Of a stretch of 4,074 nucleotides of DNA, positions 1,393-4,053 are shown piece by piece. The stretch is from a virus (taxonomy: Duplodnaviria > Heunggongvirae > Uroviricota > Caudoviricetes): the IMG/VR virus record IMGVR_UViG_3300014356_000009. One strand, given 5' to 3'. A program made the translations under genes and the position numbers. Below the pieces are notes generated by a model that saw only the letters and a list, made by a program, of their open reading frames with translations, searched no databases and was not told the DNA's origin. Each line of letters begins with the position of its first letter. The first letter of the stretch is position 1.

Positions 1393-2336
1393 GAAATCCC
1401 CCTGTCTGCAAACTTCCCTTCCCGAACTCCCGTTAACGAGTCTTCCCTCAGCAGGTAATCAAAATCTGCCGTCCAGCCCGTGTCGTTGTCTCCGAAGTAA
1501 AACGGCTTGGCCTGATGCACAAACGCCCTGACATACGCTCTGAAACCGTCCACGTTTGGCGTTTTCAGTTGCGGGATGATTTTCTTCAGGCGGCGTTTGC
1601 GTTTCTCGTTGACCGCAACAGCGTGTGGCAGTCTGTCACCGACTTCGATGTTGTAGGCGTTCAGGAAGGATTCGTAGTCGATTCGTTCTGCCTTTCGACG
1701 TTCAGGTTTAACCTGCCCATCGCCTCCCCCATTGGGGGGTAGGGGGGTATTATTTATATTCTTGTTAATACCTTCTTGTTCATGATGTGCGGTTGTTTGT
1801 GCGGCTTCATGTGCGCTTTCATGTGCGGCATGTGCGCTGAAAGCCGCGCCATTACTGGCTTCCTCATGTGCGGCATCATGTGCGGTTGTTTGTGCGGCAT
1901 CATGTGCGGGTGAATTGTCCATTTTTTGAGCATATTCATGGTAACTTGTGATGGTGATCACGCGACCTTTTTGCTTCTCTCCATCAATGGAGATCATCCC
2001 CTCTTTCACAAAAACCTGAAGCATCCGCTCAACCTGATCACGGCTTGCCGGCTTGCCATGCCTGTCGCATAACTGAAGACCTAAATCAGCTGCTGTCACA
2101 ACCAGTTGACCGGGTTGCAGATGCCATTCATGACCTTTGAAATTCGCTTTGTATGGCTTTCTGGCGGCATTCAGGAGAAGGTTTTCCCACAGGGTGCGAA
2201 GATAAACATCTTTCGCCCATGACTGTTTCAGAATGCTCCGGTACAACGGAATGTAACCAGTTTTCTGGTTCTCCATCCTGTTGCTCCTGCGCTCGTGTGC
2301 GGCGCTGAAATCGTAGATTTTTGCTGTATTGCTCAT
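1389..2336 (-). CDS. O: Replication initiation protein, lambda O-like (origin-binding replisome organiser)
   Basis: 315-aa ORF whose N-terminus [10 protein letters not shown] matches the lambda O start (MTNTAKI...) as I recall it. It has an N-terminal domain, a His/Ala-rich repetitive linker encoded by the iteron-like repeats, and a C-terminal domain. It sits immediately upstream of, and is translationally coupled to, the helicase gene. An AGGCAGG Shine-Dalgarno lies upstream of the ATG at 2334-2336. Confidence 0.8.
1724..1783. other. AT-rich tract and G/C inverted repeat flanking the iterons (candidate DNA-unwinding element of the origin)
   Basis: Positions 1748-1780 are about 82% A+T (tattatttatattcttgttaataccttcttgtt). 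Adjacent is CCCCC-ATT-GGGGGG (1726-1739) followed by TAGGGGGG. The order iterons, then AT-rich tract, then palindrome in the direction of O transcription mirrors lambda ori. Confidence 0.5.
1784..1912. repeat. Iteron-like direct repeats with 12-bp periodicity (putative phage origin of replication, inside the O-like gene)
   Basis: Nine copies of (C/T)(A/T)TGTGCG(G/C) start at 1784, 1796, 1808, 1820, 1829, 1865, 1877, 1889 and 1901 (+ strand). They form two clusters separated by a ~24-bp spacer (1841-1864). The 26-mer at 1780-1805 recurs at 1874-1899 with one mismatch. Confidence 0.7.
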
Positions 2337-2338
2337 AA

Positions 2339-2611
2339 CTACCTGCCTTGACGAAAGACCTTAAGAACATCGTTAAACTGACTTACGGATATGTCTTCTT
2401 TGAGCAGCTTTTCCAGAAATGCGTTTGGAATGAACGTATATCCCTCCTCTTTTGGTAGAGACGGGAGCAACGCCCTCGCCTCAGCCTTCAGAAGCTCAGT
2501 TCTGGCAACTTTCACAAAAGAGATTTGAGTTCTTTCATCAATGGAACGAAGGAAGCGCAAACGCTTAGCTTCTTTGTGTGTATCAGGTGGATTAAAGCCT
2601 TTGTTTCGCAT
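2339..2611 (-). CDS. Hypothetical small protein (about 91 aa), function unknown
   Basis: Open frame with ATG at 2609-2611 preceded by GAGG 8 nt upstream. Its stop TAG (2339-2341) lies 2 nt before the O-like start codon, suggesting translational coupling. The frame stays open for about 98 codons through a region with no other assigned gene. No family recognised by eye. Confidence 0.5.
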   Translation of the reverse strand: MRNKGFNPPDTHKEAKRLRFLRSIDERTQISFVKVARTELLKAEARALLPSLPKEEGYTFIPNAFLEKLLKEDISVSQFNDVLKVFRQGR

Positions 2612-2616
2612 ATAAT
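2611..2616 (+). promoter_or_regulatory. Candidate -10 hexamer (TATAAT) of a pO-like promoter for an antisense RNA
   Basis: Perfect TATAAT on the + strand at 2611-2616, about 45 nt upstream of an intrinsic terminator. The -35 region is poor (TGGATT at 2588-2593). Confidence 0.4.
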
Positions 2617-2622
2617 TACCTC

Positions 2623-2691
2623 GTTGGATGTTGTTAAAATTCCATTTGTATTTGATCAGAACGCTCGGTCTTGCACACCGGGCGTTTTTTC
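2623..2691 (+). ncRNA. OOP-like antisense RNA overlapping the 3' end of cII
   Basis: Predicted ~70-nt transcript from the TATAAT at 2611-2616 to the terminator at 2662-2690, antisense to the last ~19 codons of cII. This matches the arrangement of lambda OOP RNA (77 nt, antisense to the cII 3' end). Confidence 0.45.
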
Positions 2692-2933
2692 TTTGTGATT
2701 TCATCAAGCGCATACTTAAAAGCCCTGCTAATCGGACTGATGTCTGATGCCATTCCGAAAGCACACAAGACCGAAGCAATAAATCTCCAGTCCGTTCTGC
2801 TTATCTTCGATTCATGACAGCCAATCATCTTTGCCAGACCGCGCTGGGTAAGCGTTGACAGGTTGATGAGTAAATCTGTTTCTGCGCGATCAACGTCGCG
2901 CTGTGATAGTTTGCTGTAACTTGTTTGTTCCAT
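2634..2933 (-). CDS. cII: Transcriptional activator CII (lysogeny establishment)
   Basis: 99-aa ORF. C-terminus KKKRPVCKTERSDQIQMEF is nearly identical to the lambda CII C-terminus (KKRPAATERSEQIQMEF, from memory). A central HTH-like segment is present (ESKISRTDW versus lambda KSQISRW). It lies directly downstream of cro and the nutR-like site. Confidence 0.9.
   Translation of the reverse strand: MEQTSYSKLSQRDVDRAETDLLINLSTLTQRGLAKMIGCHESKISRTDWRFIASVLCAFGMASDISPISRAFKYALDEITKKKRPVCKTERSDQIQMEF
2662..2693 (+). terminator. Intrinsic terminator (hairpin plus T-run) on the + strand, inside the cII coding region
   Basis: Stem CGCTCGG (2662-2668) pairs with CCGGGCG (2678-2684): 7 bp including one G-U pair, with a 9-nt loop. 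It is followed by TTTTTTCTTTG (2685-2695). Confidence 0.65.
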
Positions 2934-3039: not shown

Positions 3040-3267
3040 TTATGCAGCCAGAAGGTTCTTTTTGCTTATTTCAAGCATTTCGCTTGCTTGATATTTGCCA
3101 CCAGAAATCTCTTCGATTTTTGATGCGTATTTAGTTTTCCCAAAAAACTCAGTCTTAGGGAGGAAGCCGTTTTTGAGCCACTTATAGACAGCCCTTTCGC
3201 TAACTCCACAAGCCTTCGCAACTTCAGGGATGCCGACACCTTTAATCGGCTCATCAAGATTTTGCAT
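3040..3267 (-). CDS. cro: Cro-like repressor (small HTH DNA-binding protein)
   Basis: 75-aa ORF divergent from cI. It is the first gene of the operon containing the nutR-like site and cII. HTH-like segment IPEVAKACGVSERAVYKWLKNG. SD AAGGA upstream of the ATG (3265-3267). Assignment is by position and HTH, not by similarity to lambda Cro. Confidence 0.8.
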   Translation of the reverse strand: MQNLDEPIKGVGIPEVAKACGVSERAVYKWLKNGFLPKTEFFGKTKYASKIEEISGGKYQASEMLEISKKNLLAA

Positions 3268-3345: not shown

Positions 3346-4053
3346 ATGGTTCAGAATGAAAAAGTGCGCAAAGAATTCGCCCAGCGGCTAGCGCAAGCCT
3401 GTAAAGAAGCTGGTCTTGATGAACATGGTAGGGGGATGGCCATAGCCCGTGCCCTTTCTCTTTCGTCCAAAGGCGTTAGCAAATGGTTTAATGCTGAGTC
3501 TTTACCGCGTCAGGAAAAAATGAATGCGCTTGCGAAATTTCTAAACGTTGATGTTGTTTGGCTTCAGCACGGCACTTCGTTAAATGGAGCGAATGATGAA
3601 GATACTCTTTCATTTGTTGGCAAATTAAAAAAAGGGTTAGTGCGCGTGGTTGGTGAGGCAATTCTTGGTGTTGATGGTGCCATCGAGATGACCGAAGAGC
3701 GCGATGGGTGGCTCAAAATTTATAGCGATGATCCAGATGCCTTTGGTCTTCGTGTGAAAGGAGACAGCATGTGGCCTAGAATAAAATCAGGAGAATATGT
3801 ACTCATTGAGCCTAACACCAAAGTATTCCCGGGTGATGAGGTGTTTGTCAGAACCGTTGAAGGACACAACATGATCAAAGTTCTTGGCTATGACAGAGAT
3901 GGAGAATACCAATTTACAAGCATCAACCAGGACCACAGGCCAATAACGTTACCTTATCATCAAGTAGCAAAGGTGGAGTATGTGGCTGGTATTCTGAAGC
4001 AATCTCGCCATCTGGATGACATCGAGGCAAGGGAGTGGCTGAAAAGTTCGTGA
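3346..4053 (+). CDS. cI: CI-type phage repressor with C-terminal S24 (LexA-like) autopeptidase domain
   Basis: 235-aa ORF divergent from cro. N-terminal HTH-type region. The C-terminal domain has the S24 Ser/Lys dyad context (GDSMWP, Ser141; NMIKVLG, Lys178). No Shine-Dalgarno precedes the ATG, consistent with a leaderless transcript. Confidence 0.9.
   Translation: MVQNEKVRKEFAQRLAQACKEAGLDEHGRGMAIARALSLSSKGVSKWFNAESLPRQEKMNALAKFLNVDVVWLQHGTSLNGANDEDTLSFVGKLKKGLVRVVGEAILGVDGAIEMTEERDGWLKIYSDDPDAFGLRVKGDSMWPRIKSGEYVLIEPNTKVFPGDEVFVRTVEGHNMIKVLGYDRDGEYQFTSINQDHRPITLPYHQVAKVEYVAGILKQSRHLDDIEAREWLKSS

Follow-up and report, generated by a model that had tools for sequence, protein, structure and literature searches.

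A small gene coupled to the replication initiator gene of lambdoid phages encodes a protein with a lambda O-like core, as predicted from sequence

Results

ORF90 lies between cII and the initiator gene in a lambdoid early-right operon

The virus record IMGVR_UViG_3300014356_000009 of the IMG/VR database was analysed as a stretch of 4,074 nucleotides, which we refer to as the window. A lambdoid early-right operon lies on the minus strand of the window; it consists of a cro-like gene (3040–3267), cII (2634–2933; PF05269, E 1e-33), a small open reading frame (ORF) encoding 90 residues that we named ORF90 (2339–2611), the gene of an O-like replication initiator with an internal array of putative iterons (1389–2336; PF04492, E 6.5e-15; phrog_345), and the gene of a DnaB-like helicase (16–1392). 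The gene of an S24 repressor is located on the plus strand (3346–4053).

The translation start region of ORF90 (2609–2622, minus strand) is formed by a GAGG Shine-Dalgarno sequence at positions 2619–2622, a 7-nucleotide spacer, and an ATG at 2609–2611. At the other end of the gene, the TAG stop codon at 2339–2341 is followed by the dinucleotide TT and the ATG of the O-like gene at 2334–2336, which together make up a putative coupling junction (2334–2341, minus strand). A first-pass annotation of the window had described an ORF of 91 codons, including the stop, with this ATG, this Shine-Dalgarno sequence, and an end two nucleotides before the start of the O-like gene. It had also noted that the frame remains open upstream to a TTG at position 2779, with an overlap of 146 nucleotides with cII. 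All of these features are present in the sequence. The GC content of ORF90 is 0.44, similar to that of cII and cro, and a sequence scan identified neither a promoter-like site on the coding strand of ORF90 nor a terminator after it. ORF90 thus lacks the traits of a moron or autonomous cassette, since it has no promoter or terminator of its own and is composed like its neighbours.

ORF90 belongs to a family of small proteins under purifying selection

The ORF90 protein matches phrog_2519, a family labelled as of 'unknown function', over its whole length (E 1.9e-57; residues 1–90 on profile positions 1–90 of 90). The first-pass annotation had recognised no family for the protein; this holds for Pfam and NCBIfam, but the protein is catalogued in the PHROG database. 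Long forms of 86–93 residues occur in Escherichia coli, Salmonella, Scandinavium, and Pseudescherichia. Short forms of 59–62 residues from Providencia, Proteus, and Xenorhabdus lack the part corresponding to residues 1–31 of ORF90 and match phrog_2519 as well (E 4e-17 and 1e-15; profile positions 33–87), and Klebsiella has a form of 72 residues. ORF90 is present in 279 of the 5,426 complete E. coli genomes (about 5%), where it is annotated as 'hypothetical protein', and in 57 phage records, among them the P22-like phages CUS-3, Kapi1, and JEP4, the phages HF4s, Gally, and TL-2011a, and 48 phages encoding Shiga toxin (Stx) 2a. An exhaustive profile search of 1.84 billion representative sequences returned only 15 matches, and the confident ones were all small proteins. 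Neither this search nor one with the conserved core alone found a full-length initiator carrying the ORF90 sequence.

The length and core of the protein are retained in relatives down to about 45% identity, and the ORF is intact in each of the 28 different nucleotide versions from the fetched loci. The ratio of nonsynonymous to synonymous substitution rates (dN/dS) is 0.06–0.2 in the pairs in which dS was measurable, and dS is saturated in many pairs. The comparison of synonymous and nonsynonymous changes across relatives, which the first-pass annotation had suggested as a check, therefore reveals a conserved reading frame under strong purifying selection. Given the full-length family match, the retained length, and the selection, the earlier description of an uncharacterised small ORF between cII and the O-like gene is borne out, and ORF90 is a real protein gene, more than a chance open frame.

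One database record stands apart taxonomically. OR850084.1, a 2,692-bp sequence named 'Staphylococcus phage SA 1298 Kay', encodes an ORF90 homolog with 74% identity and a matching O-like gene with 61% identity. It is probably a mislabelled or contaminant sequence, because its ORF90 match has the same score and identity as that of a Salmonella phage record.

The start codon of ORF90 is shared with an oop-like antisense element

The phrog_2519 profile and the closure of the upstream frame in relatives fix the start of ORF90 at the ATG at 2609–2611, as judged from comparative evidence, and remove the earlier uncertainty about it. The profile begins at residue 57 of the 146-codon version that would initiate at the TTG at 2779. 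Upstream of the ATG, the frame is closed within 3–15 codons in six diverged relatives, among which the only usable alternative start is located three codons upstream, in locus L005. Family members start with MRNK or a similar sequence at the ATG equivalent to 2609–2611. The 146-codon version was rejected, since the upstream extension is not conserved.

The start of ORF90 aligns with that of gene O of lambda (CGAGGT-AATTATATG in the window versus CAGGAGT-CATTATG in lambda), and the two start contexts are evidently homologous. The context is preserved even in deeply diverged family members, apparently because it also serves the promoter of an oop-like element on the opposite strand (2611–2695, plus strand), which was delineated by a terminator scan, folding, and alignment with lambda. 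The pO-like promoter of this element has a perfect TATAAT −10 box at 2611–2616, which shares nucleotides with the ORF90 start codon. The predicted RNA extends from approximately 2623 to 2695, and its 5′ end resembles that of lambda oop (GUUGGAUG versus GUUGAUAG). It folds into two hairpins (z = −3.0). The terminator, a 12-bp hairpin at 2658–2688 followed by a run of T, is located inside the 3′ end of cII. The 5′ hairpin is shorter than in lambda owing to a deletion of about 12 nucleotides. A search of Rfam gave no match for the RNA. An oop gene is annotated in HK629 and phage 21, and an oop promoter in P22. The window is therefore predicted to contain an oop homologue. The reported target of oop is cII and not the leader ORF (PMC3349717).

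ORF90 is invariably linked to an initiator gene

Across approximately 110 loci, the ORF90 family member is always located directly upstream of a Phage_rep_O gene. The junction between the two genes is a 2-nucleotide gap, an ATGA overlap, or an overlap of 8 or 14 nucleotides with the O start in every family member, which agrees with the earlier proposal that ORF90 is arranged for co-translation with the replication genes. The surrounding modules vary. The upstream gene may be a cII with 31–97% identity, cro, or another small ORF; the N-terminal domain of O is of the type found in the window or of the lambda type; the C-terminal domain of O is of several types; and the helicase belongs to one of several DnaB types or is a primase-helicase-like protein (Toprim/AAA_25). 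The link between ORF90 and O is maintained across different immunity regions, also where cII is absent. We therefore rejected the idea that ORF90 travels with cII. Restriction of ORF90 to the O N-domain type of the window was rejected as well, since the short-form genomes of Providencia, Proteus, and Xenorhabdus carry the family member beside intact lambda-type O genes, and the window's type also exists without ORF90. A programmed frameshift producing an ORF90-O fusion was rejected too, since O is in the +2 frame at the 2-nucleotide-gap and ATGA junctions but in the +1 frame at the 8- and 14-nucleotide overlaps.

Every ORF90-family module seen (loci L001–L113, compared with L105, L106, and L114) encodes its own replicative helicase. 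Leader ORFs may be associated with helicase-encoding modules, an observation from a small sample without phylogenetic correction.

The core of ORF90 resembles the N-terminal region of lambda-type O proteins

The structure of ORF90 was predicted with AlphaFold2 (AF2). A run with 12 close sequences gave a poor model with a predicted local distance difference test score (pLDDT) of 57.6, and it was replaced by a model from an alignment of 32 sequences with a pLDDT of 84.8 and a predicted template modelling score of 0.62. The model contains a helix of residues 10–51, a short hairpin of residues 54–59, and helices of residues 63–71 and 76–86. Residues 10–51 (2459–2584, minus strand) form a single long basic helix, which is variable in sequence and shortened in the short forms; such a 42-residue helix is unlikely to be stable on its own, judging from the model. 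Residues 55–88 (2348–2449, minus strand; EEGYTFIPNAFLEKLLKEDISVSQFNDVLKVFRQ) form the conserved core with a predicted strand-helix-helix arrangement, within which the IPN motif, F79, L83, and F86 are invariant.

The core is similar to residues 26–59 of lambda O (blastp E 5e-4). The Pfam family PF04492 is matched independently by 16 of the 19 family members at profile positions of approximately 6–39, with a best E of 5e-5. A profile of the core scored above all 6,500 shuffled decoys for three of five lambda-type O proteins, at residues 26–59, and gave p = 0.0006 for the other two. The pairwise comparisons of the core with lambda-type O had z scores of 3.4–5.7. The PF04492 score of ORF90 itself is 14.6 bits, below the 28.7-bit cut-off, and covers only positions 6–39 of the 95-position profile. 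The family TIGR01610 is approached by member P0009 (16.2 versus 45.5 bits, E 0.011) and gave no match for ORF90 of the window. ORF90 ends right after the second helix of the core and thus has neither the recognition helix and wing nor the C-terminal domain that recruits a helicase. Because the match is limited to the first third of the domain and remains below the Pfam cut-off, ORF90 is evidently not an initiator but a partial paralogue of one. We also considered whether a whole short form might be a duplicate of O residues 1–60, on account of a common 'NVI' motif; this was not supported, as the significant alignment comprises only the 24–34-residue core.

The slot between oop and O is occupied in other lambdoid phages

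The first-pass annotation had treated ORF90 as an extra frame relative to lambda. However, a small ORF between oop and O is a common lambdoid layout, to which lambda is the exception. Hayes et al. described a shared cII-oop-'orf'-O-P arrangement in lambdoid phages and noted that lambda naturally lacks orf48, which P22 has between oop and gene 18 (PMC3349717). Their alignment of 23 phages takes as position 1 the ATG of lambda O or that of a homologue of P22 orf48 or HK97 gp53 (PMC3349717, Fig. S1 legend). ORF90 shares both positional properties of the lambdoid 'orf', because it starts close to oop and pO and its end adjoins the O-like gene, or overlaps it in relatives. The 48-residue P22 orf48 (L115; NC_002371.2, 750–896) has its start within the oop promoter as annotated and shares 8 nucleotides with gene 18, and HK022_53 has the same start site and the same 8-nucleotide overlap with its initiator gene. 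The gp53-type ORF of HK629 (HK629_048) overlaps the HK629 O gene. In phi24B (L008; HM208303.1, 1848–1991), we found an unannotated 47-codon ORF (MRKTQENKRVNHRKDVLRDQF...) between cII and O, with the same conserved start site, an ATGA overlap with O, and a match to phrog_1913 (E 5e-22). The slot is thus occupied by members of PHROG 1913 (orf48 and the phi24B ORF), 1331 (gp53), and 2519 (long and short forms of ORF90); an ORF in this position is common, and ORF90 represents, by its profile assignment, a third family of occupants.

ORF90 does not match phrog_1913 at E < 0.01. A profile of the ORF90 N-terminal part gave a marginal score of 10.9 bits on P22 orf48, at ORF90 residues 12–24, above all 1,000 decoys, and weak similarity to HK022_53 (p = 0.001) and the phi24B ORF (p = 0.007). 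These values only suggest that the N-terminal part of ORF90 is weakly similar to P22 orf48, in segments equally far from the two start codons.

P22 orf48 and PHROG 1913 carry the label 'tail protein'. Every member that we examined is located between cII or oop and the initiator gene. The label looks like an annotation error, because the members lie in the early-right operon before the replication initiator.

Additional features of the O-like and helicase genes

Gene callers differ in the start of the O-like gene (L001, L002, L005, L006), which is placed either at M1, two nucleotides after ORF90, or at M21 (MENQK), 62 nucleotides after it; the first 21 codons span 2274–2336 (minus strand). The N-terminus beginning at M1 is close to that of lambda O, MTNTAKILNF, and the DNA is similar there too, which favours M1 as the probable start. 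The O-like gene contains a repeat array at 1779–1921 with a 12-nucleotide period and a TGTGCGG core (CATCATGTGCGG / TTGTTTGTGCGG), which encodes the repetitive AHxAAH... linker of the protein. The repeats are presumably the iterons of the replication origin.

In many related prophages (for example L024, 4720–7113; L033, L042, L065), the DnaB-like helicase has a 339-residue in-frame insertion in its P-loop, with the boundaries ARPGMGK/AMALSEG...VTHN/TELALK and LAGLIDADG-like motifs. The insertion looks like an intein with alanine at position 1. The helicase of the window is free of it, and the equivalent site is located between positions 790 and 789 (minus strand), at codons K201/T202.

Discussion

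Based on its linkage to O, the geometry of the junction, the selection on its sequence, and the similarity to lambda-type O, we tentatively favour a role of ORF90 within the replication-initiation module as an accessory or regulatory protein, which would act on or alongside the initiator through its O-like surface. The translation of ORF90 would start at the site homologous to the lambda O start, at a codon overlapping the −10 box of oop. Because it ends two nucleotides before the O start, ribosomes finishing ORF90 most likely re-initiate on O, so that the pR transcript would yield the two proteins at a constant ratio. In the predicted product, a long basic helix is joined to a strand-helix-helix core, and this core appears to be a partial, diverged copy of the beginning of the lambda-type O DNA-binding domain. 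ORF90 may pair with O, or compete for something that recognises the N-terminal region of O, and thereby tune the activity or stability of the initiator. In a more specific form of this proposal, which we consider rather unlikely, ORF90 is a truncated initiator paralogue that acts in trans on initiation and sets the amount of active initiator. It might do so by forming mixed oligomers with O through the common strand-helix-helix surface, or as a decoy that draws off a protease adaptor, a host sensor, or some other factor able to recognise the N-terminal region of O.

Several observations speak against a role in the replication module. The core profile and pairwise comparisons gave no match to the O type of the window itself (z < 0.3); because the core resembles lambda-type O and not the adjoining O, a type-specific pairing of ORF90 with its neighbour is not evident from the sequences. 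Fold searches with the ORF90 model found no informative neighbour, so that of the profile searches and structure prediction proposed by the first-pass annotation, the former yielded the phrog_2519 match and the latter a confident model, but one without an informative relative. Some prophages contain frameshifted or deleted copies of ORF90. The O N-domain type of the window occurs without ORF90 in Klebsiella phage 2b LV-2017, Yersinia phage 210.17, and Enterobacter phage ENT1. Since phages with this N-domain type work without ORF90, the gene appears dispensable for that initiator. In the Klebsiella and Yersinia phages, O is partnered by a P/DnaC-type protein, and the upstream genes, which are large and unrelated, end in an ATGA overlap with O. 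A search for the ORF90 motif in the C-termini of these genes did not find it; ENT1 has a helicase and a gp53-type leader in place of ORF90. Finally, the slot accommodates different occupants, namely phrog_1913, phrog_1331, a ParB-like gene, and a KilAC antirepressor, and unrelated small and large genes in one slot are also what an accessory-gene hotspot would look like.

The last two points would fit an accessory gene for anti-defence or host takeover, as the first-pass annotation had speculated. In that case, the gap between cII and O would be a variable site for accessory genes, and ORF90 would be directed at a host factor or defence system and not at phage replication. ORF90 is also a small, basic, early phage protein without a known fold, and if it imitates the N-terminus of the initiator, it could in principle divert a host sensor that responds to phage replication proteins. 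However, ORF90 has no promoter, terminator, or composition that would set it apart, its coupling to O is constant even where cII is missing, and its core derives from an initiator. The speculation thus found no support in a gene that is tied to the initiator and whose core is a partial copy of the lambda-type O N-terminus, and we regard it as unlikely. A search of PADLOC with ORF90 returned only JetB (E 0.021, 13 bits), which is not meaningful, and says little since PADLOC does not include anti-defence proteins; no link of ORF90 to anti-defence was found in the literature. ORF90 could instead be mainly a translational leader, in which ribosomes from the start overlapping pO are delivered to the O start and the peptide is secondary. 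The homology of its start context to lambda O's own start is consistent with this, as are the three separate ORF families that start there and all end at or overlap the O start, and the ATGA junctions of the large Klebsiella and Yersinia genes. In plasmids, rep genes controlled by antisense RNA are known to be coupled to leader peptides. Nevertheless, a pure spacer would not retain an amino-acid sequence under strong purifying selection, core residues that are invariant across genera, and a confidently folded AF2 model, and we judge a predominantly leader function to be quite improbable. The leader and protein roles are not mutually exclusive and may be combined.

ORF90 might also be a non-functional relic, a 5′ stump of a lambda-type O gene left after recombination of replication modules, which are highly mosaic in lambdoid phages (PMC2629481). 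Its start at the ancestral O start site agrees with such an origin, as does the reach of the core's similarity to O, which ends after the first 34 residues of the DNA-binding domain. However, dN/dS of 0.06–0.2 with saturated synonymous sites and the intact ORF in all 28 nucleotide versions and in diverged genera are not those of a stump. Furthermore, Providencia, Proteus, and Xenorhabdus have a family member alongside an intact lambda-type O gene, and the exhaustive search found no full-length initiator with its sequence. We rejected the relic on the grounds of selection and intactness and regard it as extremely improbable.

Earlier records list ORF90 as a hypothetical protein and include it in a PHROG family; the slot that it occupies has also been described. 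Literature searches on ORFs between cII and O, and on oop and coupling, turned up nothing specific. We did not find descriptions of the family as defined here, with long and short forms across Enterobacterales, of a coupling to O that stays constant whatever the other modules are, or of the derivation of its core from the lambda-type O N-terminus. ORF90 belongs to the early-right operon in Stx2a prophages of medical relevance (O121, O103) and in P22-like coliphages. How strongly an Stx phage replicates affects how much toxin is made, so a modulator of the initiator that had escaped notice would merit attention. Three separate families of small proteins are found in the slot between oop and O, all coupled to the initiator in the same way, and no credible function has been assigned to any of them. 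Of the three, ORF90 lends itself best to study, since its core is visibly related to the initiator N-terminus and offers a concrete hypothesis. If ORF90 is a trans-acting paralogue, the 'orf' slot between oop and O would be a place where lambdoid phages with a helicase gene of their own control replication; if it is only a coupling leader, the result is an ordinary one.

The closest positional counterparts of ORF90 are P22 orf48, HK022_53, and the phi24B ORF, which likewise start in the oop promoter region after cII, end overlapping or abutting the initiator gene, and are followed by a phage-encoded helicase. Unlike ORF90, these proteins have only 47–48 residues, lack the O-like strand-helix-helix core, and belong to another PHROG family. 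HK97 gp53, HK629_048, and the ENT1 homolog of PHROG 1331 occupy the same slot, overlap the O start, and occur with different O types, including that of the window in ENT1, but have no detectable sequence similarity to ORF90 (z < 1.1, hidden Markov model score −1.1). The N-terminal domain of lambda O (PF04492; TIGR01610) shares the start site with ORF90, and its residues 26–59 align with ORF90 residues 55–88. However, the lambda protein also has the recognition helix, the wing, the iteron-containing linker, and a C-terminal partner-binding domain, whereas ORF90 corresponds to about one third of the DNA-binding domain and has a long N-terminal helix of its own. A possible parallel is provided by tap of plasmid R1 and repY of ColIb-P9, leader peptides that are translationally coupled to plasmid rep genes under antisense-RNA control. 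As in the case of ORF90, these are short ORFs coupled upstream of an initiator gene, with the promoter or transcript of an antisense RNA beside their start. Tap and RepY comprise about 24–29 residues and it is the act of their translation that matters, whereas in ORF90 the protein sequence itself is under strong selection.

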